A DNA stretch of 64,000 nucleotides from a virus, in IMG/VR virus record IMGVR_UViG_3300016471_000988, positions 62,791-126,790 of that record. One strand, 5' to 3'. The notes below the pieces were generated by a model. It searched no databases and was not told the origin of the DNA. It saw only the letters and a program-made list of their open reading frames with translations. Shown piece after piece: positions 3,166 to 54,303 of this stretch (positions are counted from its first letter, which is position 1; each line of letters starts with the position of its first letter). The translations under genes and the position numbers were made by a program.

Positions 3166-5754
3166 TCAAGCTAAAAAAGAAAAAAGATCGCATTGTGTTA
3201 CTTCACCTGGTTTTTGTATAGCCCAGTCAACAGAATCATAGAATCGCTCTATAGCACTAAACATAATTTTGTCAAACATCATATCATGGTCGGGCTCAAA
3301 AATTTGCGCAAATTCTTCTGGGTAGTAGTACTTATAGGCGATTGCACTTATACCGTAACGGTTTGGCTGTTTCACATAAAAGTATCTAATCTTATCACCA
3401 CTGCTGATCTTTTCATATTTTTTATCTATTTTCAACAGATTTAATAATGTATTGTGCATGTATGCCGCCTTTACATGTAACGGCATAGATTTGACTGTTT
3501 TAAAGCCGTCACACTTAACAGCATACTTTTCATATCCTTTTAGCCCTGTTACAAAGGAAATATCACTAACTGGTAGCGTTTTAAATAAATCATACGTTTG
3601 CAGTACAATCTCGCTTGTCTTTTGTTGGTCTCGCGTTGTTAGCATTGTTTGCACGATTTTTTTTGCTAGCGGCTTTAAAGGTGCTGGCATCGTAGTGCGT
3701 GCAATTTCTACGCCTGTGTACTTAAATTTATCTGTAGGTATACCCTCTTCATCCAACACATGTAAGACGTATCTTTTTTTCTGAAGAAACATACCTACAT
3801 CACATATGGCTTCTCTTTTGAAGACAATTCTGCTATCTAAACTATTTAAAGATTTTTCACACCATAGCTTTATCTCAGTATTTAAATATGTTTCAATTTC
3901 ATGTACCAGTGCATGAAATTCTGCTGTTATTTTGCCTTTTTCATCGAGAAGATTAATATTTTGCCTTTCACAGACTTGTTGAAGTGTAATATAAACAGAA
4001 TCGGTGTCATTGTAAATAATTGGAGTATTTTTTTCTATTTCACCATCGGTAAGACCAGTTTTTTCCTGAATAAATTTTGATAATATCTTATTGCCTTGCT
4101 TGATAACTGCTTGACCGGTTAAAGTAATGCTTCTTGCCAGGTCATCATCACCAAGCGGAAATACTTTGTTACCTAATGCCCCGTATACAGTATTAATAAA
4201 AATTTTTATGGTATGTTGCTTAATATTGAGGATACTTATTTCATCTTTAATTTTTTGATAAGTTGGATCGGTTTTTTCTAATGTTGTTAATAGTTTTTTA
4301 GCTTTCTTGTGGTCGCGGCGAACCTGTACGCGCAACTTATAATATTGATCAACCATTTCTGGAATAATGCCTTTTGTTTTTTGGCTGAATAAAACTTTAG
4401 CTTTGCTAAGGCTTAGCTTTTCTTGTTGAACAAGCTGCGCAAACCTATTGATAGGAAGTGTAACAGTTTTACCATTAACATCTCTAATTATCACCTCCTC
4501 TTTATTTTGTGATTCGATAACTCCAAGCTTTGTTTCTGGTGATAAATTTAAAGTAACCATCACAGATGGATACAGGCTATTTGCATCAAAACTTACGATA
4601 TTTCTTTGAAAGCCTCGCTTTGGCTCACTCACATACGCGCCCTCGTTTTGCTTACCTTCGTCCTCGTCGCGTACGAACGTTGGAATTCGCATGTTACGAT
4701 GCCGCGCTCGAATTGCACATGCTCCAATAATGACACTCATGCTTCCCATAGCGGCTTCCATGGTAGTTAAGCCGGTATAGCTAAGCATTCTAAGTAATTG
4801 AAAATATTGTAATTTATCCTCTAATTTAACAAGCAATCTAACGTCTTGAACGTTATAATCGACAAACGTATTCCAATCACTATCCGCAAGACTACTTAAA
4901 TTAGTTTCACCATAATCGACCTTAGATTCGTTTAACTCAATCTTTGCAATATTATCAAGTTTATAATTTTCTCTAAGAACCATGCAGAATCGTTTATAGA
5001 TATCTAGATAATCTAGACAGGAAATACCATCTATATACCATCTAATTTGCTCTTTACCAAATTGTCCCTTGAGATGTCTACTGTAAACACGCCCGACAGG
5101 GCTCAACCTAGCTACTGTTTCATCATCGAATAAAACACGTATGCGATTAACTAGGTAAGGGAGATCGAAAAGAATCGAATTCCACCCCAGAATAACATCA
5201 GGATAATCCGATTCAATATGCTTAATAAACTTTTCTAACAGCTCTTTCTCCGTCTTGCAGTATAAAAAGATATGATCCTCACTTATCTTATTACACGGCT
5301 TAATACCCCACGTAATAAATTTTTTTGTCAGTGTATCGTAAATTGTGATAATATTAATAGGGTGATTAGCAGTTTCGATATTAGGAAAATCATCTACAGA
5401 ATAAGTTTCAATATCTAGAAAAAACAACTTTAATGGAAATTGTGAAAAATCTGTAGTCTCATTTACTTGCCAGAAGTTATCTAATAAAAACTGTTGTGCA
5501 GGAGAAAGATTCTCAAATACGCGGGTTATTCCTGACTCTCGCAAATATTTGGATTTTTCGAACTGATTTCTAAATGTCTTTTTCTTTAAATGCGTGTTAA
5601 AAATACTTAGTGCGTCCTTTGCACTATTATTTTCTAGAAAAACATATGGATGATATGTAGAATCAATAGCAATTCTTTCACCACTCTTATTCCATGTAAA
5701 AAGTCTAATTAACTCCTGACGAGGGTCATATGCAACATTTCTATAGCCAATCAT
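3166..5754 (-). CDS. gp43: Family B DNA polymerase (T4 gp43-like)
   Basis: Exo I DIET; Exo II GWNSILFD; Pol motifs SFDANSLYPS, KIFINTVYG and YNDTDS. 862 aa, with no intein-sized insertion. Confidence 0.97.
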   Translation of the reverse strand: MIGYRNVAYDPRQELIRLFTWNKSGERIAIDSTYHPYVFLENNSAKDALSIFNTHLKKKTFRNQFEKSKYLRESGITRVFENLSPAQQFLLDNFWQVNETTDFSQFPLKLFFLDIETYSVDDFPNIETANHPINIITIYDTLTKKFITWGIKPCNKISEDHIFLYCKTEKELLEKFIKHIESDYPDVILGWNSILFDLPYLVNRIRVLFDDETVARLSPVGRVYSRHLKGQFGKEQIRWYIDGISCLDYLDIYKRFCMVLRENYKLDNIAKIELNESKVDYGETNLSSLADSDWNTFVDYNVQDVRLLVKLEDKLQYFQLLRMLSYTGLTTMEAAMGSMSVIIGACAIRARHRNMRIPTFVRDEDEGKQNEGAYVSEPKRGFQRNIVSFDANSLYPSVMVTLNLSPETKLGVIESQNKEEVIIRDVNGKTVTLPINRFAQLVQQEKLSLSKAKVLFSQKTKGIIPEMVDQYYKLRVQVRRDHKKAKKLLTTLEKTDPTYQKIKDEISILNIKQHTIKIFINTVYGALGNKVFPLGDDDLARSITLTGQAVIKQGNKILSKFIQEKTGLTDGEIEKNTPIIYNDTDSVYITLQQVCERQNINLLDEKGKITAEFHALVHEIETYLNTEIKLWCEKSLNSLDSRIVFKREAICDVGMFLQKKRYVLHVLDEEGIPTDKFKYTGVEIARTTMPAPLKPLAKKIVQTMLTTRDQQKTSEIVLQTYDLFKTLPVSDISFVTGLKGYEKYAVKCDGFKTVKSMPLHVKAAYMHNTLLNLLKIDKKYEKISSGDKIRYFYVKQPNRYGISAIAYKYYYPEEFAQIFEPDHDMMFDKIMFSAIERFYDSVDWAIQKPGEVTQCDLFSFLA

Positions 5755-5993: not shown

Positions 5994-7233
5994 TACCATT
6001 AATGCGGTTAATATTGACGCGCTCTGGCGCACCATAAGGGTAATTGAATAGCTCGTAGTAACAATCCAGATTGCTACTATTCTCCATCCACCGACTATCA
6101 GCATTCTTACGAGCTGTAGCACATATATTCATATATCTTCCCTTGCGGCTTAATACATCTCTTACTATCCCAATCATTTCTTCGCCTGTTTTAAACTTAA
6201 ATTCCGCATCTTTGTATGTACAGAGATCTTGACACGCTATAGGAAGTCCAAAGCAATTAGCCTCAATCCACTTTAAATCAGACTTACTTTTATTAAAATT
6301 ATTATCCTGAAGCGGTGCAATCATCATGTTAATTCTTAGCTTATAAATAGCCTCACCATAATTGTAAAGATTTGTCCAGGGGTGGAATTCAACCAATCCA
6401 CGCTCAACTAACGGACGAAGCGGTAAAGGGAAAGCACCTAAAAATACCCATTGAAACTCAGTATGAGTATCATAGATAGTTCTAATTATATGCTCAAAAT
6501 CATCTCGCTGGTTTACTCTATTCTCTACATCGAAATGCGCCCCAGAGCCTGCATATAAGATTCTCGGCTTCGCCTTGTACGTGTCGTAGTTACTGCTAAT
6601 TTGTTTCTCATTATAGAAATGCCCGAGCCAAAACTTTGGCGGATAATTTGGAATAACTGTTACATGTTTATGTCCAGTTTTTTCCTTGTAATAATCCTTC
6701 ATAAAATCATTTGTTACAGTAATCTCGTCACAAAGCGACATTATGTCTTGTGCATTCTTCCGGATCTGGGGATCGACAAACGCTGTTTTAAATTTATTAT
6801 AGTCAGGAATATCCTCACAGAAAACTAAATCATCAATTTCATAAACAATTCTAAATCCCGTCTGGCCAGGTTGTTTCGATATTTGCTCAGAAACTTCCCG
6901 TAAAAACTTTACAAATTGTAGCTGCGACGAGGTCGCTTGTCTCTGGACACGTACCACCTTTACATTAACATACCACCGGGGGTCAAGCACCATGACAGTG
7001 CTGCCATGAACAGTCATTCTACCGTATGCGTTTAGTAGGTGCTCCGGCCATAACATTCGCCAAAACCCGCAGCCTGAATAATCAGCATAGTACTGAACGG
7101 CGCGGGGAAGATTAACGTCAGGAGGCGGTGAATTATCAGCTACAAGGGGAGTATTTGCAGGTACTTGTTGTACAGGTACAACACTTGGAACTGTTTGAAG
7201 TAATGGTGGTGTAAAATTACCTGTAATAAACAT
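5983..7233 (-). CDS. GT-B fold glycosyltransferase in the replication cluster
   Basis: ADYSGCGFWRMLWP, YEIDD and IAPLQDNNFNKSKSDLKWIEANCFGLPIAC match phage GT-B glycosyltransferases. Confidence 0.75.
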   Translation of the reverse strand: MFITGNFTPPLLQTVPSVVPVQQVPANTPLVADNSPPPDVNLPRAVQYYADYSGCGFWRMLWPEHLLNAYGRMTVHGSTVMVLDPRWYVNVKVVRVQRQATSSQLQFVKFLREVSEQISKQPGQTGFRIVYEIDDLVFCEDIPDYNKFKTAFVDPQIRKNAQDIMSLCDEITVTNDFMKDYYKEKTGHKHVTVIPNYPPKFWLGHFYNEKQISSNYDTYKAKPRILYAGSGAHFDVENRVNQRDDFEHIIRTIYDTHTEFQWVFLGAFPLPLRPLVERGLVEFHPWTNLYNYGEAIYKLRINMMIAPLQDNNFNKSKSDLKWIEANCFGLPIACQDLCTYKDAEFKFKTGEEMIGIVRDVLSRKGRYMNICATARKNADSRWMENSSNLDCYYELFNYPYGAPERVNINRINGITV

Positions 7234-7264: not shown

Positions 7265-9073
7265 TCAACTTATTCCACTCTTAGTCAACGTAGTAATTCC
7301 ATTGCATTTCTCTAGGCATATCATATTACCTGTAACAAACCTGGTACATTCTTTTCTATGTGTTATAACATAGACACCGTACATATTCTTAGCAACAAAT
7401 TCATTGAGCAAGTTTAAAACCAAATCAACACCAGCTTCGTCTAAGCTAGTATCGAGCAATTCATCATAAAATTGAATATTATAATATATATTACCTTGTA
7501 GGCTCAGCATATCAATAAAGCTAAACATAATAGCGAGATCAATTACCTTTCTCTCAGCACCGCTGAAATTAAAATATGTTGTAAGTTTTCCTTTATCGTT
7601 TACTATTTGTTCCTCGAAATATTCATTAAATGAAATAACGGCGTTAGAATTTAATTTTTTAAGATAATATGTTATTTTACTATTAAAGAGTTTTAGAATT
7701 TTCTTCACGATAAAACTCTTTACTCCTTCCTCGCTAACAATAAATTTTACTGTATCTAATAGATTTAAAACTTTTTGCAGGTTATCGAGCTTTTCCTTTG
7801 CAGCTGTAAATTTCGCCTTAGCATCTTCAATAAGATTGGTAAGACCTGTGCTTGTATCAGTTAGATGTTGTAAATCCTGATTAACCTGCTCGTTGAGCTT
7901 TTTAAGCTGCGCAAGTTTACTCTTGTCGTTAACTAGCTGCTGGTCGGATAATTTACTATGATTAATATTATTTTGTCCTTTCTTTACAGCATCCTGTATT
8001 TTAGTCTTTAAGGTACTCAATTCAGATATTTTTGCTTCGTAATCTTTAATTTCCGTCTCTCTTAGCTTAATCTCCTTCTCATATTCTTGCTTTGTATGGC
8101 GGATATGGGTAATATCATGAGTGTCTATTGTGCGTAAACACGTAGGGCAAACATCCTTATCGGTGCCGATCTTAGACATTGAGGTGAACACTAATTCATT
8201 TTTTGTCTCTAATGTTGCGACCTGCTTACCAAGATCCTGTATCTTGGTATCGGTTTCAGATAACTTCTCTGTTAGCTTAGTCAAATTTTTTGTAATTTCC
8301 TCGACACTCACAGGCTTATAGTTATTAATACTCTTCTCCAAGCTTTCGGCTTGCCGGTCATTGTCTCTCTGTCGATTGAGCAAGGTTTTTTTCCTATCTT
8401 CATATTCCTTATGCTGTGTAGTCTGTTGCGCTGTAAGAGTGTTAATAGAATTCTCAATCTCCTCACTTCGCGCACTTTCAGTATCAAAGTCTTTTCTTAC
8501 TGTTGATTGTTCCTCTCTTAACTGTGAGAGCATTTTACTAAAAATCTCTAGATTAAAAATACTCTCAATAAACTTTCTCTTTTCAGCTTTCTTCTTAGCC
8601 ATAAAAGGAACTGTATTATTGACCGTCATTACTACACAGTTTTGAAAGACCTCTGGGGTACATTGCAGTACTTGCATAATATAGTCTGTAGTATTAGCAA
8701 TACTGTCTCTAGTTATATCCAAATCGTTATGATAAAGTGTACATCTGCTCGGTTCTAAAGTACGTATAATTTCATACGTTTCAACATTCTTATTACTTGC
8801 AGCCACGCTAAAAGATAGAGTAACTTCACACGTTTTACTTGTAATATTATTAATAATAAATTCTTTTTTTAATTCACGAAGTGTGGTTCCGAAAAGCGCA
8901 AAATGTAGCGCGTCGGTAATTGTGCTCTTACCAACACCGTTGCGTCTGTCCATTTGATCCTTATTAATACCGGTAATTCCATGAAGACCTGGTCTAAACT
9001 TTAAAACAACTGGTGTATCCCCAACACTCAAAAAGTTTTTTATGGATAATTTATTAAAAAATATTTTCTTCAT
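7265..9073 (-). CDS. gp46: Recombination endonuclease ATPase subunit (gp46, Rad50/SbcC-like)
   Basis: Walker A NGVGKST; coiled coil with CPTC zinc hook; signature FSGAE; Walker B FYDE; ITH. Confidence 0.95.
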   Translation of the reverse strand: MKKIFFNKLSIKNFLSVGDTPVVLKFRPGLHGITGINKDQMDRRNGVGKSTITDALHFALFGTTLRELKKEFIINNITSKTCEVTLSFSVAASNKNVETYEIIRTLEPSRCTLYHNDLDITRDSIANTTDYIMQVLQCTPEVFQNCVVMTVNNTVPFMAKKKAEKRKFIESIFNLEIFSKMLSQLREEQSTVRKDFDTESARSEEIENSINTLTAQQTTQHKEYEDRKKTLLNRQRDNDRQAESLEKSINNYKPVSVEEITKNLTKLTEKLSETDTKIQDLGKQVATLETKNELVFTSMSKIGTDKDVCPTCLRTIDTHDITHIRHTKQEYEKEIKLRETEIKDYEAKISELSTLKTKIQDAVKKGQNNINHSKLSDQQLVNDKSKLAQLKKLNEQVNQDLQHLTDTSTGLTNLIEDAKAKFTAAKEKLDNLQKVLNLLDTVKFIVSEEGVKSFIVKKILKLFNSKITYYLKKLNSNAVISFNEYFEEQIVNDKGKLTTYFNFSGAERKVIDLAIMFSFIDMLSLQGNIYYNIQFYDELLDTSLDEAGVDLVLNLLNEFVAKNMYGVYVITHRKECTRFVTGNMICLEKCNGITTLTKSGIS

Positions 9074-39403: not shown

Positions 39404-40035
39404 GCTATGTTAAGCAAACTGTTAATACGGTTGCAGATAATTATATTCTCCAACGCTTGGCTATCGAAACGTGTGAAGGTGATGTCGATAGCAGTCAGCA
39501 CGTATTGACACTATTTGCATTGGCATGCTCTTTGAGAGCTAAGAGTGTTCTAGAGCTCGGTGTAAGGCATGGGTTTACTACATTACCACTCCTGGCGGCC
39601 ATGTGTATAACGGATGGTCATTTAACATCTGTTGATTTAGATCAACCAAAAGTTCTGCACCCAGAGTGGGAGCTAAAAGATTTTATGCTTGGCAGGTGGA
39701 CATTTGTTCAAAGCGATTCACTGAAATTCCTAAGCACGGCTCAGCCGCGCTACGATCTAGTTTATATCGATGATTGGCATGGTAGCGAACATGTTTACAA
39801 AGAGTTAAAGCTAATATCGCAATATACGGACAATAGATCGTTAATCGTATTACACGATCTGATGCATTCTAGCACACACCCTGAATATAATAAGAAAGAA
39901 TACCCACAAGGCAATGAATTCGAAGGGACTGGCCCATATGGTGGTGTAGAGAAATTTGTAAATGAAGCGCCGGGTGCTTATGAATATGTGACTGTCCCGG
40001 TATGCCACGGATTAACAATATTGCGCAAAAAATAA
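39400..40035 (+). CDS. Class I SAM-dependent methyltransferase (Methyltransf_24-like)
   Basis: LELGVRHG; SVD; YIDDWH; LHD. Confidence 0.82.
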   Translation: MSYVKQTVNTVADNYILQRLAIETCEGDVDSSQHVLTLFALACSLRAKSVLELGVRHGFTTLPLLAAMCITDGHLTSVDLDQPKVLHPEWELKDFMLGRWTFVQSDSLKFLSTAQPRYDLVYIDDWHGSEHVYKELKLISQYTDNRSLIVLHDLMHSSTHPEYNKKEYPQGNEFEGTGPYGGVEKFVNEAPGAYEYVTVPVCHGLTILRKK

Positions 40036-40866
40036 ATGAAATACCTTATTTTAGGATCTGCCGGCCAAATAGGCGAAGGCATGGTAGAGTATTATACTAG
40101 CACTGACGATTCTGTAGTAACGTTTGATATTGTTGATTCTTCTCACCAGGATTTGCGTATCTCAGGAGCAGCTGATGAGGCAATTAGACACAGTGATTTT
40201 GTATTTTTTCTTGCGTTCGATGTAGGCGGGTCAAGATACTTAAAGAAGTATCAACACACCTACGATTTCATTAGTAATAATATGAGTATTATCAGTAATA
40301 CATTTAATAGCTTAAAAAAATATAATAAGCCGTTTATTTTTGCGTCTAGTCAAATGTCAAATATGGACTATTCGCCGTACGGCGTTTTAAAAAGTATAGG
40401 GGAAAACTATACAAAAGTATTGAACGGATTGGTAGTTAAATTTTGGAATGTATACGGTTATGAAAGAAATAGAGAGAAGTCCCATGTGATTACAGATTTT
40501 ATTTTAGCCGCAAAAGCAAATAAACGTATAGAAATGCTGACCGATGGTCAAGAAGAGCGTCAGCTTTTATATGTTGAGGATTGCTGCAAATGCTTGGATT
40601 ATCTATCTAAACATTATGAAGCTATTTCGCGAGAAGAAAATCTTCATATAACTTCTTTTGAATGGATCAAGATTTTAGATGTTGCAAAGACGATCGCGAC
40701 ATTTTATCCAGGCACGGTGATACAGCCCTCACAAACAATAGACACAGTGCAACTCAATAAAAAAAATGAACCTAGCAAAGATATCTTTAAATACTGGCGG
40801 CCAGAAACTAATCTTAAAGAGGGGATTAGCAATATTATAAGAAAAATGGATAGGTATGATAACTGA
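40036..40866 (+). CDS. NAD-dependent epimerase/dehydratase
   Basis: GSAGQIG; FASS; YGVLK; WNVYG. Confidence 0.85.
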   Translation: MKYLILGSAGQIGEGMVEYYTSTDDSVVTFDIVDSSHQDLRISGAADEAIRHSDFVFFLAFDVGGSRYLKKYQHTYDFISNNMSIISNTFNSLKKYNKPFIFASSQMSNMDYSPYGVLKSIGENYTKVLNGLVVKFWNVYGYERNREKSHVITDFILAAKANKRIEMLTDGQEERQLLYVEDCCKCLDYLSKHYEAISREENLHITSFEWIKILDVAKTIATFYPGTVIQPSQTIDTVQLNKKNEPSKDIFKYWRPETNLKEGISNIIRKMDRYDN

Positions 40867-41731
40867 TCAAACATACTACCATATAACATTTCATCAGCAG
40901 CTAGACTGCTTGAGGTATCACATTGATAACGTTATGTCGTGGAAAGACAGTGGGCGATTAAACTTTGTTTTGACTTCAGCCCATTTAGATAATCTAGAAA
41001 AAATAAAGCAATATATTACAAATAAGTACCCTGAAAAAAAAGTAGAAACGGTAAAAATCCCCGTAGATAAAGGTTATAACTTAGGAACGATTACTAATGT
41101 TGTTGAGGGGTTAAGATACATAGCTGGCAAAGGTAGTTTTGATTATGTAATAAATGTGGAAGCAGATAATATGTTTTATTTTGAAAATAAGGTAAATAAA
41201 ATTCTTGATCTAATGAAACTTGAAAATAAGCATGTTTTAATAATTCCTGAGGGAGATGTAACCATAACAAATATTGGAAATGATATTTTTGGAAGGCGAG
41301 GTCTTAAGATAGGCTGCCACCTATCAAACAATATTCCAAAATACTATCACTTTACAACGCTAAACATGTTTAGTAAGGAATATCTAACTAACTTTTTTCC
41401 GTTTGAATACTATGACGATATTATAAATTTTAGCTGGGCCGGAAGACCTAATACCCCGTACGAAGATTATATGGGATTAGCAACAATGAAGAAGAATGCT
41501 CTCACAGAAGAGAGTCAGGTAGACTTTTACAGAAAGGTTGGTCTTAAGCTAGACTACAACATAGATCACTCACCTTTTGGTTGGAATGAGCCTGATAATA
41601 TGGTTCCGGACAAATTTATTAAATGGGGTATAATTAATGCACCATCCACTGCAGGGGGGTCGCAGCACGGTGATTGGACTAATTTAATAGGGTTTATTAA
41701 TAAACACAAACCACTTGTAGTAAATGACTAA
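40856..41731 (+). CDS. Hypothetical protein, possibly GT-A-like
   Basis: NVEADN; island context only. Confidence 0.5.
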   Translation: MITDQTYYHITFHQQLDCLRYHIDNVMSWKDSGRLNFVLTSAHLDNLEKIKQYITNKYPEKKVETVKIPVDKGYNLGTITNVVEGLRYIAGKGSFDYVINVEADNMFYFENKVNKILDLMKLENKHVLIIPEGDVTITNIGNDIFGRRGLKIGCHLSNNIPKYYHFTTLNMFSKEYLTNFFPFEYYDDIINFSWAGRPNTPYEDYMGLATMKKNALTEESQVDFYRKVGLKLDYNIDHSPFGWNEPDNMVPDKFIKWGIINAPSTAGGSQHGDWTNLIGFINKHKPLVVND

Positions 41732-42944
41732 GCCCCCTATCCTATCGCTCGGCGATAATAAACTAACAAACAATTACATATCGGTTCTCGATTTAGGTGA
41801 ACAACCATGGGGTAACGACTTTTTATCTAGCTCAGATAATTCAAAACAAAAGAAATACCCATTGCATTTGGTTTATTGTTACGATACCGAATTACTACAG
41901 TTGACACATTTTGTCCCGAAAGAAGTTATGTTTACGGAACATACTTACGTCACCACACCTACATTATTAGAAGATTTTTTAAATATTGCAAAGGAAAATA
42001 TTGCACAGTTTAATTTAAAAGATGGTGACATCATACTAGACATAGGCGGTAATGACGGCTCCCAGCTCCTACAATATAAAAAACTAGGTATTAATAGCGT
42101 TATAAATTTTGAATCTGCTAAAAATATAGCACAATTATCCGAAAAAAATAAAGTACTCTGTATTAACGAATTTTTTAATCTAACCACAGCTAAAAAGTTT
42201 CTAAATAAAGAATCAGTTAAACTTATAAACGCCTCCGGCGTTTTTTTTCATTTAGAGGAGCTACATAGCGTAATCGACGGAATAAACTACTGCCTGCATC
42301 AGGATGGGATATTTGTTGTCCAGTTTATGTATGCTGGAGCTATGATAGAAAATTTGAATTTTGACACTATTTACCATGAACACCTGTGTTACTATACCGT
42401 ACACAGTTTAGTTAAATTGTTAAAAAAATATAATTTGTATCTTGAGGATGGTTATTATACTGAATTACACAGCGGTAGTGTTGTAGCAAAATTTAGAAAA
42501 TATCCAACAGAAAAAACTGTACGGGCAAAACAATTAGTTGAAAGCGACAAAAAATATAATCTACAAGCCTTCCTGGATTTTGGTGATAAGATTAAGCTAC
42601 GGCGGAATAACCTTAGAGAAGTTCTTCAAAATCTTAAAGCACAAAATAAAAAAATATATGCATATGGTGCACCAGTCAAAGGAAGCACCTTAATGAATTA
42701 CATGGGTATCGATAACACGCTTATAGATAAAGCTGTAGAGGTTAACCCATTAAAAATCGGCACATATACACCTGGGAGCAATATACCTGTTGTCGCAGAA
42801 ACATCTACTGATTTGCCGGATTATTATCTATTGTTAGCGCATAACTTTGCTGACAAAATTATTGCAAAGAATTCTCATTTATTTCATAAAGGCGTAAAGT
42901 TTATTCTACCGTTTCCGGATGTTAAAATTATTGATAATGGTTAG
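41724..42944 (+). CDS. NDP-hexose C-methyltransferase-like protein
   Basis: LDLGEQP; DIGGNDG; DTIYHEHLCYY; YGAPVKG. Confidence 0.87.
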   Translation: MTKPPILSLGDNKLTNNYISVLDLGEQPWGNDFLSSSDNSKQKKYPLHLVYCYDTELLQLTHFVPKEVMFTEHTYVTTPTLLEDFLNIAKENIAQFNLKDGDIILDIGGNDGSQLLQYKKLGINSVINFESAKNIAQLSEKNKVLCINEFFNLTTAKKFLNKESVKLINASGVFFHLEELHSVIDGINYCLHQDGIFVVQFMYAGAMIENLNFDTIYHEHLCYYTVHSLVKLLKKYNLYLEDGYYTELHSGSVVAKFRKYPTEKTVRAKQLVESDKKYNLQAFLDFGDKIKLRRNNLREVLQNLKAQNKKIYAYGAPVKGSTLMNYMGIDNTLIDKAVEVNPLKIGTYTPGSNIPVVAETSTDLPDYYLLLAHNFADKIIAKNSHLFHKGVKFILPFPDVKIIDNG

Positions 42945-42978
42945 TTGCTTTAGACTGTTTTCAGGATAATATATAACT

Positions 42979-43512
42979 ATGATAGAATATAATATTGAAA
43001 CGGAGGATTCATCGATTCACTGGAAATATTTAAAGCCTGCAGGTAAGAACGTTTTAGATTTAGGGTGCGGGCGTTGGTGTGATAGAAATGGAAGTTGGGA
43101 CAATCTTGATCCGGCGGAATTTAGTCCAATATGGCTGGGCGCACAGGGGGCGCGAAAAGTTGTAGGGGTAGATTCTTCTGTAAACGAAATCAATATAATG
43201 AATGATTTGACAAAAGGCAAGGCAGAGGTATTTACCTTTATCTATCAGTCAATAACAAGCCCAGAGCAATTAAAACATTTGATTAATCTCTTTGATATTA
43301 ACGTAATTAAGAGTGATATTGAAAGAGCTGAAACAAATTTCTTCCATTTTACGAAGGAAGATTTTTCAAAAATTGAAGCTTTTGCAGTAGAGTATCACGA
43401 ACACTACATTAAAGATATGTTTTTAGCTAAACTACCGGAGTGGGGATTTAATATTACTGTCCACGGAAAGCTGTGGGTAGATGGCTTCGGTGTGTTATTT
43501 GCGGAAAAGTGA
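42979..43512 (+). CDS. SAM-dependent methyltransferase-like protein
   Basis: VLDLGCG; KSDIE; VEYH. Confidence 0.7.
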   Translation: MIEYNIETEDSSIHWKYLKPAGKNVLDLGCGRWCDRNGSWDNLDPAEFSPIWLGAQGARKVVGVDSSVNEINIMNDLTKGKAEVFTFIYQSITSPEQLKHLINLFDINVIKSDIERAETNFFHFTKEDFSKIEAFAVEYHEHYIKDMFLAKLPEWGFNITVHGKLWVDGFGVLFAEK

Positions 43513-44444
43513 AGATATTAATAACTGGTGCCGGTGGGTATATTGGCTCCGTTTTAACAGAAGAGTTGTTAAAAAGAGGCTATACTGTAACGGCTTATGA
43601 TAATTTGGCATATAATCAACTTTCTTTACTAGGATTTTTTGGTAACAAAAAATTTACCTTCGTTAGCGGTGACGTACGAGATCACGCCAAATTATTAAGC
43701 TGTGTTTATGAGCATGATGTAATAATACCGTTAGCGGCAATAGTAGGTGCTCCAGCGTGCGACAAGTTTAAAGTAGAGGCAACAGCGATTAATTTTACAC
43801 AAGTTGATACTATATTAAAAAATATCTCAAATAATCAACAAATTATTATACCCAATACAAATAGTCAATACGGCTCGAGTGAAGCAATAATAACAGAGGA
43901 TAGCCCGTTTAAACCTCTATCACATTATGCAAAAACAAAATGTGATGCAGAGAAGGCGTTATTCGATAGTAGCAACGGTATATCGCTAAGACTTGCTACA
44001 GTATTCGGAGTTTCACCACGTATGAGATTAGATTTGCTCGTGAATGATTTTACCGCGCGCGCATATACCGATAATTTTCTAGTATTGTTTGAATCACATT
44101 TTAAGAGAAACTTTATTCATGTAAGAGATGTTGCACAGGCATTTATTTTTATGATGAATAATTATACTAAATGTAATAATCAACCATACAATGTTGGCTT
44201 AAGCACAGCAAACCTAACAAAACTTGAGCTAGCCTTAGCAATCAAAAAATTTATACCTAATTTAGTGATAAAGGAAGATCAATTTGCGCAGGACAAAGAT
44301 AAGAGAAATTATATAGTTTCAAACGATAAAATAGAAAACGCAGGGTGGTCACCGAATTACAGTCTCGACGACGGAATAAGAGAAATATTAGCTGCAATGC
44401 CCATATTAAAAAATAAGCTTGACAAATCTTTTACTAATTTATGA
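43509..44444 (+). CDS. NAD-dependent epimerase/dehydratase
   Basis: ITGAGGYIG; YAKTK; LRLATVFG. GTG start at 43509. Confidence 0.88.
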   Translation: MKILITGAGGYIGSVLTEELLKRGYTVTAYDNLAYNQLSLLGFFGNKKFTFVSGDVRDHAKLLSCVYEHDVIIPLAAIVGAPACDKFKVEATAINFTQVDTILKNISNNQQIIIPNTNSQYGSSEAIITEDSPFKPLSHYAKTKCDAEKALFDSSNGISLRLATVFGVSPRMRLDLLVNDFTARAYTDNFLVLFESHFKRNFIHVRDVAQAFIFMMNNYTKCNNQPYNVGLSTANLTKLELALAIKKFIPNLVIKEDQFAQDKDKRNYIVSNDKIENAGWSPNYSLDDGIREILAAMPILKNKLDKSFTNL

Positions 44445-45145
44445 AGATATGTTTCTTCACTGTCAATCATAGCAGATCTGAATCATACAATTATCAAGCT
44501 AAATGTCTGAAGCGATTTACAAAAATAAAGAATTTCGATATTATTGTTTATGATAATTCCCCTATAGGCGGGGAGCAAATTAGCGCTGCATATAAAGATT
44601 TTAATAATGTTACCGTGTTAAGTAATCAGCGTAATGCCGGCTACCACCTAGGCCAGCTCTACGGTATTAATGAATGTTATCATCTTTTAAAAAATTACGA
44701 CTACGTGGTCCAGCATACGTCAGATACTTTTTTTGTTAGTGATAGCTTGCTTAGCGACTGGATAATAAATTTCGAAAAGCATAAGGGTGTAGGGTTAATG
44801 ACAAACCAATTCTTATTTCACCCAGAATCAAATCATCATGTGCGCGAACCAACACTATGCTATGGAACAGATGTATTTGTCTTTAAACCATCTCTTCTAG
44901 ATAAAGAATTTTGGCTAAAAACATTATCGTATGGAGATATTCCCCCAGAATTAATTCTCTATAAAGCATGCACGGATCTTAAAAAGCTTGTTTTTATATG
45001 GCCGCGAATGTTTGTAACTAATGAAGGCAGGCAGCTGTGTGCACCTGAAGCAAGTGACTTAAATGGTTATGATGCACGTTTTTTTGCTGATACAGTAAGT
45101 GTTATGCACACGCACAATCTAACATTTTTAGACAAATATTTATGA
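44441..45145 (+). CDS. Hypothetical protein, possibly GT-A-like
   Basis: IIVYDNS; HTSDTF; island context. Confidence 0.5.
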   Translation: MKICFFTVNHSRSESYNYQAKCLKRFTKIKNFDIIVYDNSPIGGEQISAAYKDFNNVTVLSNQRNAGYHLGQLYGINECYHLLKNYDYVVQHTSDTFFVSDSLLSDWIINFEKHKGVGLMTNQFLFHPESNHHVREPTLCYGTDVFVFKPSLLDKEFWLKTLSYGDIPPELILYKACTDLKKLVFIWPRMFVTNEGRQLCAPEASDLNGYDARFFADTVSVMHTHNLTFLDKYL

Positions 45146-46056
45146 ACGTATTAGTTACCGGCGCAACAGGGTTTCTCGGGCGACATTTATGCTCTAGGCT
45201 ATTGGAGCTTGGAGCAGATATATGGACATGCAATACAAAAATTGGTAACTTGCATGATTATAATGGTCTCGTTACATTATGCGTGGGTTTGAAGTTTGAT
45301 TATATTTTTCATCTCGCAGCAAGTACAAAGGCAGGGACATATTGTTTAAGTCATCAAGGTGATCAATATCTTGCAAATCTACAACTTAACACCAATATAT
45401 TAAAGTTTTGGCATGAACGTCAGCCACAAGCCAAATTAATTGCTATTGGAACCAGCTGCGGCTATGATCCAGGTCTAGAGAAAAAGGAAGATAATTTTCT
45501 TAAGGGCGAGCCATTCTATGATTTATATACCTATGCTATGACAAAACGTATGTTACTTTTAGGCGCACAAATGCTTAGTAAACAATACGGCCTCAAGTAT
45601 CTATACTATATACCTTCCACCTTATACGGTCCAATGTTTGATGTTGAGGATAGTCACTTTATCTTTGATTTAATAAAAAAAATATACGCAGGTAAAAATC
45701 ATAGCCAACCGGTTAAATTATGGGGGACTGGTAATCAGAAGCGCGAGCTGACATATGTGGGAGACGCTGTCAATATTATCATGCAAACTTTACATTTAGA
45801 AAATGAAAGTGTAAATTTATGTTGCGGTCAAGAATATAGCATTAAGCATTATGCAAATTTAATCTCAGACATTTATAATTATGATCAAACAAAAATCGAG
45901 TATGATACAACACAGTATGAAGGAGTGGCAAGCAAAGTACTATGTGCAGAAAAACTTCACAAGCTACTTCCAAACTACCAGTTTACACCTCTTGAAATTG
46001 GAATAAAAAATACTATCTATTATTATAATGAGAAAATATCTGCCAACGTTTTCTGA
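45142..46056 (+). CDS. fcl: GDP-L-fucose synthase-like epimerase/reductase
   Basis: TGATGFLG; HLAA; GTSCGY; YAMTK; WGTGNQKRE. Confidence 0.75.
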   Translation: MNVLVTGATGFLGRHLCSRLLELGADIWTCNTKIGNLHDYNGLVTLCVGLKFDYIFHLAASTKAGTYCLSHQGDQYLANLQLNTNILKFWHERQPQAKLIAIGTSCGYDPGLEKKEDNFLKGEPFYDLYTYAMTKRMLLLGAQMLSKQYGLKYLYYIPSTLYGPMFDVEDSHFIFDLIKKIYAGKNHSQPVKLWGTGNQKRELTYVGDAVNIIMQTLHLENESVNLCCGQEYSIKHYANLISDIYNYDQTKIEYDTTQYEGVASKVLCAEKLHKLLPNYQFTPLEIGIKNTIYYYNEKISANVF

Positions 46057-46438
46057 ATTAGTTGACAGATTGTCAATAACATTGCTCAAAGCAATTTTCA
46101 TTCCAGCGCATAAGCAGCAGTACGATCAGGAAATAAAAGATATAGAGCATGATTTAAATGAAATAATCACGGAGAAAGATATTAAATTTAACGCCACATT
46201 GATAAAGGCCGTTTGTATGGTAATGTTATCAAATAGATATATATGGGAAAACGAGAGCAAGTGTAGAAATGGCGAGTCGCAGGATTTGTCTTTACTTAAG
46301 TTGACGCATTCGATCAATGGTGTTAGAAATACAGCTAAAAACATAATAGCAACAGAAACAGGTGAACGAAAAGATCTAAAAGTCGACTGTCTTGCCGCAG
46401 AGCTCGTCTCAGATTATCAAAACTGGAAAGTTTTATGA
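46028..46438 (+). CDS. Hypothetical helical protein
   Basis: ELVDRLSI ... NGVRNTAKN; common in phage glycan loci. Confidence 0.6.
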   Translation: MRKYLPTFSELVDRLSITLLKAIFIPAHKQQYDQEIKDIEHDLNEIITEKDIKFNATLIKAVCMVMLSNRYIWENESKCRNGESQDLSLLKLTHSINGVRNTAKNIIATETGERKDLKVDCLAAELVSDYQNWKVL

Positions 46439-46752
46439 AACAATCATTCAAAGAATATTATACTCTATATCTAAAAAAACATACCAACCTAACAAACCGA
46501 AGACTGCATGTTGTAGGTCAACTTTTAACAATAGCTTATTTTTGTTTGGTAATATACTTGATGGCGACAAAAGGGTGGGTGTTTACTCCTTTATTGTTCT
46601 TGGTTCCTTTTATCGTTTACCCGTTTGCTTGGTCTGGACACTTTTTCTTTGAAAGAAATAAACCGGCTGCATTTAAAAATCCATGGAAAGCTAAAGCAGC
46701 TGACTGGGTAATGCTAAAGGATATTTTGCTAGGAAAAATAAAGCTTTGGTAA
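46435..46752 (+). CDS. DUF962/Mpo1-like membrane protein
   Basis: HTNLTNRRLH; AWSGHFFFERNKPA; DWVM; two hydrophobic helices. Confidence 0.8.
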   Translation: MKQSFKEYYTLYLKKHTNLTNRRLHVVGQLLTIAYFCLVIYLMATKGWVFTPLLFLVPFIVYPFAWSGHFFFERNKPAAFKNPWKAKAADWVMLKDILLGKIKLW

Positions 46753-47534
46753 TGAAAAAGAGAATATTAGTTGTTGGGGATGGATGTGAAGACATCTACA
46801 TTTACGGTAAATGCGAAAGACTCTGTCCTGATGCACCAGTACCTGTATTAATTCCTACTAAAAAAATCATTAACGGTGGAATGGCAAAAAATGTATATGA
46901 AAATATAAAATCAATATACCCGTATGTAGATTTAATAACAAATAAGAATTTAATATCTAAAACTAGATTTGTTCATGAACGAACAAATCAAATGTTTGTA
47001 AGGGTTGACGAGGGTGAGCATTTAGCAGAAAGGGTCAATATTCAAGACATTAATCTTAATAACTATGAATTAATTGTCTTGGCAGATTACTGTAAGGGCT
47101 TTTTGCGTGAAGAAGATATAGAATATATCTGCGCAAATCATAAGAATGTATTTTTAGATACAAAAAAAATTCTCGGCTCATATTGTCAGCAAGCACGTAT
47201 AATAAAGATAAATGAAGTTGAATATAACAGAAACGTTGAAGCAAAAATTGATTTGTCTAAATTTCATAACTCACTAATAACTACTTTAGGTGATAAAGGG
47301 TGTAGATATGAAAATATTCTATACGGTGTAGATGTAGTAGAGATAAAAGATATGACCGGTGCGGGCGATACATTTATGGCGTGTTTAGTTGTAAAGTATC
47401 TACAAACTGATAATATTGAGACGGCTATAACTTTTGCAAATGAATGCGCGACAACTGTAGTACAGCATAAAGGCGTTGTAAAGATAGGAGATCATTTTAA
47501 ATTAGGAAGTTTGTTAGTAGATTTTGAAAAGTAG
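46752..47534 (+). CDS. PfkB-family sugar kinase, RfaE/HldE kinase-domain-like
   Basis: VGD..EDIY; RLCPDAPVPV; DYCKG; DMTGAGDTF. Confidence 0.85.
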   Translation: MKKRILVVGDGCEDIYIYGKCERLCPDAPVPVLIPTKKIINGGMAKNVYENIKSIYPYVDLITNKNLISKTRFVHERTNQMFVRVDEGEHLAERVNIQDINLNNYELIVLADYCKGFLREEDIEYICANHKNVFLDTKKILGSYCQQARIIKINEVEYNRNVEAKIDLSKFHNSLITTLGDKGCRYENILYGVDVVEIKDMTGAGDTFMACLVVKYLQTDNIETAITFANECATTVVQHKGVVKIGDHFKLGSLLVDFEK

Positions 47535-47551
47535 GATATTAAAATTATATT

Positions 47552-48556
47552 ATGAAACATGTTGTTGTATGTGGTGGCGGTGGGTTTATCGGTGGGCATT
47601 TAATTGAATCACTGAAAAAACAAGGCAATTGGGTGCGGGGTGTAGATTTGAAGGAACCAGAGTTTAGACGTCTTTCAGCAGATGAATTTATAGTGGGTGA
47701 TTTAAGAGATCCGCAGTTTGCAAAAAAAGTTCTATATAAAAATAATTTCCGTGATATAGGGTTTACGGCCTCTAAGTTCTTAGAGCCTGTCGATGAAGTT
47801 TATCAATTAGCGGCGGATATGGGCGGCGCTGGTTATATATTTTCAGGCGAACATGATGCAGACGTTATGCATAATTCTGCAACTATTAATTTAAATATTG
47901 CTCATTATTGTGCAGAGCTAGGCATTAAAAAGATATTTTACAGCAGCAGTGCATGTATGTATCCGGAGCATAATCAGTTAGACCCTAACAACCCAAACTG
48001 TGAAGAAAGTTCTGCTTACCCTGCGAACCCTGACAGTGAATATGGTTGGGAAAAATTATTCAGCGAACGTATGTTTCTATCATTTAACCGTAATTATAAT
48101 CTCGATGTAAAGATAGCACGCTTTCATAATATATTTGGCCCGTACGGGTCTTATAACAATGGTAAAGAGAAGGCACCAGCAGCAATATGCAGAAAAGTTG
48201 CACAATCAGTAAATGATGGTGAAATAGAGATATGGGGCGACGGTGAGCAGACTAGAAGCTTTTTATATGTGGATGAATGCATAGAGGCAATCCACCGGTT
48301 AATGAAATCTGATTTTAATGGCCCAGTAAATGTTGGTTCAGAAGAAATGGTTACAATAAACAAGCTAGTCGACCTAGTTGCAGAGATTGCTAGTAAAAAA
48401 CTTACTAAAAAGCATATCCCTGGACCGCTCGGTGTGCGCGGTAGAAATTCTGATAATAAATTAATTCAAGAAAAGCTCGGATGGTCACCATCACAGCCTC
48501 TTGTTGATGGTCTTGCAAAGACGTACCGCTGGATTGAGAAGATGATTTATGCCTAG
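47552..48556 (+). CDS. GDP-mannose 3,5-epimerase-like protein
   Basis: GGGGFIG; QLAADMGGAG; YSSSACMYP; YGWEKL; KEKAPAA; WGDGEQTRSF. Confidence 0.88.
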   Translation: MKHVVVCGGGGFIGGHLIESLKKQGNWVRGVDLKEPEFRRLSADEFIVGDLRDPQFAKKVLYKNNFRDIGFTASKFLEPVDEVYQLAADMGGAGYIFSGEHDADVMHNSATINLNIAHYCAELGIKKIFYSSSACMYPEHNQLDPNNPNCEESSAYPANPDSEYGWEKLFSERMFLSFNRNYNLDVKIARFHNIFGPYGSYNNGKEKAPAAICRKVAQSVNDGEIEIWGDGEQTRSFLYVDECIEAIHRLMKSDFNGPVNVGSEEMVTINKLVDLVAEIASKKLTKKHIPGPLGVRGRNSDNKLIQEKLGWSPSQPLVDGLAKTYRWIEKMIYA

Positions 48557-49327
48557 TTAAATACTAACAGGCAGCTTTCCTTTTGATAAAGCAGCTGTTT
48601 TTGCAAATTCACCTTTTGTAGATATTATTGTATCGCACTCTCTTAGTAGATAAAAATCTATAAAAGATTTTTTAAACCCATACAGGCTGCAACCCTCCCT
48701 ATCCATATGCTCGGTTGTACCTGGTACATGCATAAAATTAAATCTATCTTTTGCATAGTCATAAAACGCTTGACTGTCTGTACATAAAAATATTTTTTTA
48801 TCTGCAGATATTTGTTTTGTTTTTTCAACAACAAAGTCAAAACTTAACTCCCTACCAAAATTTATATCTCCCCAATTACACTGTTTACCTCCAAATCTCG
48901 CACATAGCCCTATAGTATCACTCTCAATATTAAAGGGTAGTGAAGCTCTTAAGCAAAAAAGCTCTTCAAACAGCGATTCAAAACTATATGGAAAATGCTC
49001 AGTAAAATTAAGATTTGTTTTAATACAGACAATATCAGAATTAAAATGATCATTAATATCTGGTGAGTTAAAGATCGGTCTATATTGATCATGCCCCTCA
49101 CAATCAAATATAAAATGCTCTTCAGCAGTCCCAACAATTTTTCGCCTTTTCCAGTTTACTTTATTTGGCTCTAAAATTTCAGAAATATCATACGGGTAGG
49201 TCCAATTTATAATAAAATCCCTTTTAGTGACCTTTGCTAAGGCATAACAAGAAACAAGACCTTTAATTCTATCGGCTAAGCCGCCCGCAGGTCTGCATAT
49301 ACAGTTATAAACAATATATTTTTTCAT
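48557..49327 (-). CDS. O-fucosyltransferase/NodZ-like (GT-B) protein
   Basis: GGLADRIKGL; FLCTDS; DFYLLREC. Confidence 0.6.
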   Translation of the reverse strand: MKKYIVYNCICRPAGGLADRIKGLVSCYALAKVTKRDFIINWTYPYDISEILEPNKVNWKRRKIVGTAEEHFIFDCEGHDQYRPIFNSPDINDHFNSDIVCIKTNLNFTEHFPYSFESLFEELFCLRASLPFNIESDTIGLCARFGGKQCNWGDINFGRELSFDFVVEKTKQISADKKIFLCTDSQAFYDYAKDRFNFMHVPGTTEHMDREGCSLYGFKKSFIDFYLLRECDTIISTKGEFAKTAALSKGKLPVSI

Positions 49328-49340
49328 TAATAATTTATCA

Positions 49341-49742
49341 TGGAGCTGGTGGGGGTCGAACCCACGTCTTGAAAGGTTACATTTATAAACACTACAAGCT
49401 TATCTTAGTTAAGCTTCAGAATAAATTAAACTAAGCAAAATTTATTCTATATGACAATTTTGTACGCTTGATAGGTAACTGTCACAACACATCAAGTCGA
49501 GAGCTTGTAACACGCCTTATCTTACCAGCTCCAATCTACAATAAGACGATCGAGTTAAACTAACTCGAGTTCGGCTTCTGCGTCTTCAAAGCCGTACTGT
49601 GCAAGAATTGCATCAGCCTCTTCTAGACTCATAGCCATGTCGAAGTTATCTTCGGCATTTAATAGTTTTGCTATTTTATACTGGCATGCCCCAGTGCTTG
49701 CATCTATGAACCTCGCCGTTCAATCGATACCATTTCAGCCCC
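49341..49742 (-). ncRNA. ssrA: tmRNA (402 nt)
   Basis: 5' GGGGCTG pairs with 3' CAGCTCC-A (G3:U Ala identity); T-arm GTGGG-TTCGACC-CCCAC. Internal tag ORF 49656..49555 has its stop in a hairpin. CCA is not encoded. Confidence 0.95.
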
Positions 49743-49760: not shown

Positions 49761-49788
49761 ATTGTAGATGAAAATCGATTCTTATCAA
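49761..49788 (-). promoter_or_regulatory. ssrA promoter TTGATA-N16-TACAAT
   Basis: Read directly, 18 nt upstream of tmRNA G1. Confidence 0.7.
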
Positions 49789-53709: not shown

Positions 53710-54303
53710 GTGAACTTAATTCATTTAATTAAGGTAATAACTGCTTATAAGCTTACACCGTTTGCAAAAAATCTAAAAGAAGTGACTAAGCCGTTACACG
53801 ATCAAATTGAATCTCATCCCTTTATTAAGAAGTTTATAGATGGTAAATTATCAGACTTGGAGTATGCGGCATATCTCTCAAATTTATATCCGATTTACGA
53901 AAAAATTGAACGTAGGCTTTTATGTCCAACATCTATTCTAGCGCGTGCCGAACATATAAAAAACGATTTAGTTAACTATTCTAATTTTCTAGATATAGAT
54001 TTATCAAAATATTATGTTAACGGTGACTGGGCGGATAAACTCGACACAGATGACCCGTATAAGCTCACAGCAACTTTCTATATAAGATGGCTAGGAGATC
54101 TATACGGTGGACAAATATTAGCTAAAAATATTAGGTTTAATAGTTCTTTAAAGTTTAGAAATGTTAGAGACTGCATTAGAGTCGCAAGAGATCTTATAGA
54201 GTATAATGGGTCAAAAGACATTAACAGATTTCTTGTACAGGTAAGTGATGCATATACGAGTAACTATGACCTAGTTACAAAGCTTAATAGCATGAAACTA
54301 TAG
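53710..54303 (+). CDS. ho1: Heme oxygenase
   Basis: LKEVTKPLHDQIE (proximal His); YIRWLGDLYGGQIL signature. Confidence 0.9.
   Translation: MNLIHLIKVITAYKLTPFAKNLKEVTKPLHDQIESHPFIKKFIDGKLSDLEYAAYLSNLYPIYEKIERRLLCPTSILARAEHIKNDLVNYSNFLDIDLSKYYVNGDWADKLDTDDPYKLTATFYIRWLGDLYGGQILAKNIRFNSSLKFRNVRDCIRVARDLIEYNGSKDINRFLVQVSDAYTSNYDLVTKLNSMKL

Follow-up and report, generated by a model that had tools for sequence, protein, structure and literature searches.

The 64,000-nt stretch of viral DNA analyzed in this study (referred to as the window) carries a one-piece tmRNA gene with a tag reading frame of 33 codons. The RNA is a genuine tmRNA that evolves under structural constraint, and the pattern of codon conservation points to translation of its tag frame and to selection on the encoded peptide. 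The core of this peptide was detected in tmRNA genes on unrelated phage backbones. In the clade to which the window belongs, the standard end of the tag appears to have been exchanged for an invariant LELV.

The tmRNA gene and its carrier

In a 126,790-bp IMG/VR virus record, rated 59% complete by CheckV, the window makes up the second half. The record encodes a T4-type gp43 that shares only about 30% identity with its counterpart in any isolate phage; the carrier is an uncultured, T4-like aquatic phage. Other genes include a heme oxygenase (53710-54303), a sugar-nucleotide and methyltransferase cluster (40000-48600) and an M15 endolysin. The cluster consists of a run of NAD-dependent sugar epimerases/dehydratases, C-methyltransferases and a NodZ-like protein, and with it a sizeable set of glycan-building genes adjoins the tmRNA gene. 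The sole tRNA gene of the record is a tRNA-Met (CAT) at 56803-56878; the complete relatives possess 8-16 tRNAs, often with one immediately upstream of the tmRNA. In a complete, more distant T4-like genome (236 kb, gp43 46% identical) a tmRNA is absent, and the tmRNA gene is therefore regarded as an accessory of one clade.

The gene is located on the minus strand at positions 49338-49742 and comprises 405 nt, of which 3 lie beyond the discriminator base. It matched the Rfam model RF00023 over the full model length (positions 1-374 of 374) with 93.8 bits (E = 2.9e-35) compared to a gathering score of 47, which confirms the phage tmRNA proposed in the initial annotation. The phage tmRNAs of the clade scored between 84 and 107 bits, whereas 120-216 bits were obtained for the bacterial genes. 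A putative sigma-70-like promoter (TTGATA-16-TACAAT) was predicted at 49761-49788 on the same strand by a consensus scan with 10 of 12 matches, and its −10 box ends 18 nt ahead of the mature 5′ end of the tmRNA. Many relatives have a tRNA gene 13 nt upstream of the tmRNA in place of this promoter.

All parts of the RNA described in the following are encoded on the minus strand. The 5′ strand of the acceptor stem (GGGGCTG, 49736-49742) is paired to positions 49342-49348. Among these pairs is G3:U70, the alanine identity pair, which is invariant in 16 of 16 relatives. The 3′ strand CAGCTCC and the discriminator base A (49341-49348) are followed directly by TGA; a 3′ CCA is encoded neither here nor in the tmRNA gene of any relative. 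The T arm (GTGGG/TTCGACC/CCCAC) was found at 49349-49365 with three of five pairs covarying, and the first stem of pseudoknot 1 (ACTGG/CCAGT) at 49680-49695 with two of five. One pair of the latter stem is C-G in 8 sequences and U-A in 8.

The sequence upstream of the tag frame is UAUUAAAU, followed by the resume codon GCC (Ala, 49654-49656), so that the resume context had been described correctly at the outset. In the Rfam consensus alignment this GCC is placed on the consensus resume codon at the top posterior probability, and the same codon was selected by ARAGORN in three relatives (L005, L008 and L013). The tag reading frame (49558-49656), identified by translation and codon conservation, ends with the stop codon TAA at 49555-49557, a site occupied by TAA or TAG in the relatives. 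As had also been noticed earlier, the stop codon is part of a hairpin. This hairpin is helix 5 (49550-49568; two of five pairs covary), an 8-bp stem-loop of the form TCGAGTTA-GTT-TAACTCGA at 49568-49550 with the stop codon in its 3′ arm. Compensatory change was further detected in the first stems of pseudoknot 2 (49513-49548; 6 of 9 pairs), pseudoknot 3 (49452-49484; 4 of 8 pairs) and pseudoknot 4 (49404-49435; 3 of 7 pairs).

A degenerate pattern over the first nine tag codons yielded 19 viral contigs, 17 of them with a full-length tmRNA. For the covariation analysis, 16 distinct related phage tmRNA genes were aligned. Compensatory change was found in 31 of the 90 predicted pairs, compared to 16.7 ± 2.2 pairs in shuffled alignments, none of which (0 of 500) reached 31, and 5-9 pairs in slid controls. 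The compensatory pairs are located in the long P2 helix, pseudoknot 1, helix 5, the first stems of pseudoknots 2, 3 and 4 and the T arm. All structural features of a tmRNA are present in the window RNA, and the Ala-Ala end of the tag is the only expected character that is missing.

ARAGORN did not report the gene of the window, and it also missed those of two complete relatives (L019 and L009). For the relatives L005, L008 and L013 it reported the same tag frame with the same start, and the tag of L013 is identical to that of the window at the protein level. For several long tags, an internal resume codon was selected by the program. Surveys based on ARAGORN thus undercount the phage tmRNAs of this long-tag family.

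The acidic tag and its C-terminal end

Translation of 49555-49656 on the minus strand results in a peptide of 33 residues (P0001) followed by TAA. It contains 11 Asp or Glu residues and no Lys, Arg or His, in agreement with the strongly acidic tag annotated initially. An open frame of 33 codons is by itself unremarkable, and the evidence against chance is its conservation. The tag consists of 33 codons ending in LELV in 18 of 18 clade members. For codons 10-33, which lie outside the search pattern, 9, 5 and 16 variable sites were counted among 16 distinct relatives at codon positions 1, 2 and 3, respectively. The synonymous share of the pairwise codon differences was 61% in the tag frame compared to 13% and 7% when the RNA was read in either of the other frames, which argues for translation of the tag and its selection as a peptide. 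In the same 16 relatives, stop codons are present in the other two frames and absent from the tag frame.

Conservation within the RNA is highest in the tag, where 68% of the columns are invariant compared to 35% in the rest of the molecule. Five helices were predicted by RNAalifold within the tag frame, all of them free of compensatory change. This finding is no evidence either way for RNA structure within the frame; since the five helices lack such change, the conservation found there is considered to be of the coding kind.

A structure of the peptide was predicted using AF2 fed with the tag alignment. In the model, residues 11-20 form a helix (pLDDT about 87) and residues 26-32 a weaker one, with a mean pLDDT of 74.5. 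The tag is accordingly predicted to be partly helical, in line with the acidic helix suggested beforehand, an AF2 model of a 33-residue peptide being weak evidence. Matches of the tag to domains or proteins were found neither in Pfam nor in the ESM Atlas.

The last four residues of the tag, LELV, are invariant throughout the T4-like clade of the window. In this part the frame overlaps with helix 5, and the 5′ partners of the covarying pairs are the third positions of Leu30 and Glu31, at which only synonymous changes occur. Because the covariation is limited to synonymous third positions, the C-terminus appears to be under selection at the peptide level. The last residues meet a constraint on the RNA and a constraint on the peptide at once, and part of their conservation is due to the RNA constraint of helix 5.

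The C-termini of the sister tags that share the core read LLAA, QLAA, LMAA, AMAA, AVAA, LAAA, ALAA, AVLV or LVIA. Most of them finish with the ordinary LAA, VAA or MAA, and LELV is limited to the T4-like clade of the window. Since most sister tags have ordinary degradation ends, the core usually acts in combination with a standard degradation end, which the clade of the window seems to have swapped for LELV. Among the bacterial control tags, 19 of 19 end in Ala-Ala. The tag of the window is without Ala-Ala, and its last residue is hydrophobic, which is the rule among tmRNA tags (PMC4131195).

The initial annotation had regarded the LELV end as standing "instead of a degron". This interpretation could not be maintained as worded: the last two residues of the tag are hydrophobic and its carboxylate is free, LELV does not vary within the clade, and LAA, MAA, VAA or AAA ends are found in the sister tags. 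The ends of the sister tags weaken a reading in which degradation is avoided; they do not show that proteins ending in LELV are degraded. On sequence grounds, the data would fit better to a conserved handle combined with a hydrophobic C-terminal signal. The Glu at position −3 departs from the LAA signal of ClpX, and LELV may not be a ClpX signal. An E. coli tag with a terminal Val was described to be still a substrate of ClpXP, although a slower one, and in Mesoplasma a longer tag with another end can pass substrates to Lon (PMC9382460).

Distribution of the tag core and search for its reader

A profile of the clade tags was compared to 1.84 billion proteins. This search resulted in 21 hits, of which 20 are short miscalled ORFs and one is a repeat protein. 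Most of the 20 miscalled ORFs show differing N- and C-terminal parts around one common core, and a cluster look-up of the metagenomic tag ORFs returned metagenome sources only. A natural protein that is mimicked by the core was also considered and rejected, since the profile matches tmRNA-derived ORFs only and the single repeat protein is regarded as a chance match.

Using a second degenerate pattern for the core, 69 viral loci were obtained, 55 of them with a tag-like frame. The family comprises 36 distinct tags on 55 viral contigs with the core consensus [MLF]-A-[MP]-S-[LV]-x-EADA-[IV]-LA-x-x-G-[FY]-x-[DE]-x-E, which the tag of the window fits at every conserved position. With the start assumed to lie 12 codons ahead of the core, tag length comes to about 30-34 residues. 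At the core loci tested, full-length one-piece tmRNAs of about 385-470 nt were found with Rfam or ARAGORN. Outside the search pattern, one Ala (36 of 36 tags) and one Ser (35 of 36) are fixed. The invariant Ser is encoded by AGY in 26 cases and by TCN in 11, and selection at the peptide level is the only explanation for the use of both codon types.

The clade-specific pattern gave 0 hits in 185,579 bacterial and archaeal species genomes (one genome per species). The broad core pattern was found in at least 120 bacterial stretches, with none located in a tmRNA among the matches listed. In the 50,697 genomes of isolate phages no match was obtained in searches at the DNA and the protein level (tmRNA, and three tags by tblastn). 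As far as these searches and the matches listed reach, a tag with this core occurs in phages and neither in the bacterial genomes examined nor in the isolate phages, and the long-tag tmRNA family is without a cultured model.

The window-type gp43 was identified only in carriers of LELV (five searched, 58-77% identity). The carriers of other tag forms include near-complete genomes of 162-197 kb that lack it. In an all-against-all ORF comparison of five genomes, G001, G005, G008 and the related pair G009/G013 had 1-11 proteins in common. The GC content is 35% in G001 and G005, 56% in G008, which has terminal repeats, and 40-43% in G009/G013. From the few common proteins and the differing base composition it follows that the tmRNA core is present on at least four unrelated backbones. 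A tag-masked tree of the phage tmRNAs and 19 bacterial tmRNAs, based on an arbitrary bacterial sample and without support values, placed most phage genes apart and three of them beside a gene from Verrucomicrobia.

Further RNA elements were observed in the analyzed sequences. In a Burkholderiales MAG (G039) from the bacterial controls, two full-length tmRNAs are located on contigs C10 and C1 (192 and 180 bits, respectively). A Pistol ribozyme (RF02679, 59.7 bits) was detected at positions 2145-2212 of L148, a 64-kb viral contig, about 390 nt upstream of its long-tag tmRNA. The clade relative L021 contains a group I intron (RF00028, 70.9 bits; 7675-7911) about 3 kb from the tmRNA, and it is labelled "provirus" in IMG/VR, which is odd for a T4-like phage. 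On L004, an unrelated viral contig of 180 kb, the tmRNA (4788-5161) has an ordinary tag of 11 residues with an MAA end, and a ROOL RNA (RF03087, 108 bits; 6602-7182) follows 1.4 kb downstream.

Protein partners of trans-translation were searched for in the phage genomes. In accordance with the initial annotation, smpB was not found in the record of the window (59% complete), nor was it found in two 100%-complete relatives. Across the 14 carrier records searched, six of which are at least 90% complete, no gene for SmpB, SspB, Lon, S41/Tsp or RF-1/ArfB was detected, and ClpP was present in one. The record of the window and two complete relatives, G001 (229.7 kb) and G002 (217.4 kb), lack SmpB, a CCA-adding enzyme, SspB, Lon, S41/Tsp, ClpP and an RF-1/ArfB domain. 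A CCA-adding enzyme (PF01743) was not identified in any of five clade records.

A gene-sharing test was performed for five genomes using BLAST (E < 1e-5), a threshold that a fast-evolving small protein could escape. The families common to four of the five genomes were the two subunits of ribonucleotide reductase, dCMP deaminase, PhoH and a sigma factor, with no others. No support was obtained for a reader encoded by the phages: SspB, Lon, Tsp/S41 and ArfB are absent, ClpP occurs in 1 of 14 records and no candidate is common across the backbones. Since no such gene is shared, the reader of the tag, if there is one, is probably a host factor.

Possible function and comparison with known systems

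In our estimate, the chances are about even that the window encodes a host-dependent tmRNA which frees stalled ribosomes in infected cells and adds a two-part signal to their products, composed of a phage-specific helical handle for a host factor and a C-terminal end deciding what becomes of the product. The gene would be transcribed from its own sigma-70-type promoter, or from the tRNA cluster in relatives, and the transcript would be matured by the RNase P and the CCA-adding enzyme of the host. Charging by the host AlaRS would take place via the G3:U70 pair. Host SmpB and EF-Tu would then deliver the RNA to stalled ribosomes; these are expected in large numbers as soon as a T4-like phage begins to destroy the host mRNA. 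The ribosome would resume on GCC and append the 33-residue tag.

The first part of the proposed signal is the conserved acidic helix, which is presumably amphipathic, contains invariant small residues and may have spread between unrelated phage backbones. Its proposed role is that of a handle by which a broadly conserved host factor, for instance a protease, an adaptor or a chaperone, would bind tagged proteins. The second part would be the short hydrophobic end, an ordinary protease signal of the LAA/VAA type in most phages and LELV in the clade of the window. This end would determine the fate of the tagged protein, LELV representing a changed or weakened degradation end and not the loss of a signal. 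We infer the host dependence of each of these steps, the binding of a partner by the helix and the reading of the end by a protease.

A more specific version is put forward tentatively and is rather doubtful in its full form. Here the helix would be a handle invented by phages and traded horizontally, which docks rescued truncated polypeptides on one conserved host machine, and the interchangeable end (LAA-type or LELV) would pick fast destruction or another fate. If this were true, phages would reprogramme the output of trans-translation, beyond boosting the rescue of ribosomes.

Different functions of the tag were weighed against the two-part signal. The tag could be non-degradative, so that ribosomes are rescued while their products are spared or receive a new property (solubility, sequestration or interaction) and the quality control of the host is bypassed. 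This would account for an end of LELV and not Ala-Ala with an acidic residue at position −3, for the strong negative charge (11 acidic and 0 basic residues) and for about 20 additional conserved residues, which are needless for simple degradation. We nevertheless consider it unlikely, because most tags with the same core end in the canonical LAA, VAA or MAA, because the invariance of LELV under peptide-level selection argues that something reads this end, and because hydrophobic termini are common to tmRNA tags in general (PMC4131195).

A quite improbable alternative is that the long peptide affects, in cis, the ribosome translating it or the cycle of rescue, for instance by filling the whole exit tunnel with a defined sequence before termination or by pacing the release, without any signal after release. 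The exit tunnel has a length of about 33 residues. The size of the tag is close to this value and is fixed at 33 in 18 of 18 clade members and at about 30-34 across the family, and the lack of a detected reader fits such an action as well. However, the invariant small and acidic residues on one face of the helix and the conserved hydrophobic end are more like a binding surface, and bacterial tmRNAs function with tags of 8-14 residues.

Two further explanations dispense with the tag as the product of trans-translation. The RNA could serve mainly as a competitor or decoy for the SmpB or tmRNA of the host, inhibiting host trans-translation with an incidental tag. A phage without smpB would have to compete for host SmpB, and the RNA of phage DS6A, which consists of little beyond a tRNA-like domain, was discussed as a possible SmpB titrator (PMC4131195). 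A role of this kind is very improbable for the window gene, since coding-type selection makes the tag frame the most conserved segment of the RNA, and four pseudoknots and helix 5, none of which a decoy would need, are maintained by covariation.

The frame might also be an ordinary small gene that is initiated at an internal AUG (Met7 or Met9) independently of trans-translation, and metagenome gene callers did call ORFs of 25-27 residues from that Met. Across the family, though, M, L or F occurs at this position and M or P at the following candidate. A conserved AUG for ordinary initiation is therefore missing, and this practically excludes an independent small gene. The residues upstream of the internal Met also evolve as codons, and the frame begins exactly at the resume codon assigned by Rfam and ARAGORN. 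An independent gene is thus hardly credible.

The two-part signal bears on the question why some phages carry a tmRNA. A core of about 20 residues is selected as a peptide, as judged from its codons, is common to unrelated large phages and was not found as a tag in the bacterial tmRNAs and genomes examined; the phage versions therefore appear to do something that the host tmRNA does not. The explanations for phage tmRNAs that were found in the literature are general only, namely free ribosomes or recycled host protein (PMC9004378). In full-text literature searches, the core sequence was found in no paper, and only general remarks on the function of phage tmRNAs were retrieved. The core peptide is a concrete reagent for finding the reader of the tag, and the LELV clade and its LAA-ended sister tags represent a natural swap experiment on the C-terminal signal.

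The window gene is similar to the canonical bacterial SsrA (RF00023, e.g., in E. coli) in its acceptor stem with G3:U70, T arm, pseudoknot 1, Ala resume codon, stop codon in helix 5 and pseudoknots 2-4, and it presumably uses the same host partners. It differs in the size of its tag, which has 33 residues, about three times as many as is usual, compared to 8-14 in the 19 sampled bacterial tags, and in ending with LELV where all of these have Ala-Ala. The conserved internal helix and the lack of smpB in the phage are further differences.

Long tags that do not end in LAA are known from Mycoplasma and Mesoplasma, where bacterial ssrA tags ending in YAFA/NYAFA are read by Lon (PMC9382460). They are a precedent for a longer tag with a change of the reading protease; in contrast to the family described here, their tags show no similarity to the phage core. 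The marine myophages Melnitz and HTVC008M and some cyanophages encode two-piece permuted tmRNAs (PMC9004378). Like the carrier of the window, they are aquatic T4-like phages without smpB, and in their case, too, it was asked what the tmRNA is for. Their tmRNAs are permuted and related to host lineages, whereas the window gene is of the standard one-piece type with a tag that was not seen in the bacterial genomes examined.

A further parallel among phages is found in Bxz1 and related cluster C mycobacteriophages, which are listed as tmRNA carriers (PMC4131195). These also possess a phage-borne one-piece tmRNA, which in Bxz1 is located in a tRNA cluster, and no phage smpB, but they represent another phage backbone and infect another host phylum. 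The long acidic tags ascribed to mycobacteriophages in the initial annotation do exist, as ARAGORN reports a 25-residue acidic tag ending in ALV for Bxz1. A common origin of the two tags was rejected on account of an hhalign probability of 0.3% and the lack of a tblastn match. Judging from these comparisons, the Bxz1 tmRNA is an analogue and not a relative of the window gene, and their tags resemble each other only in length, in acidity and in ending with Leu-Val.
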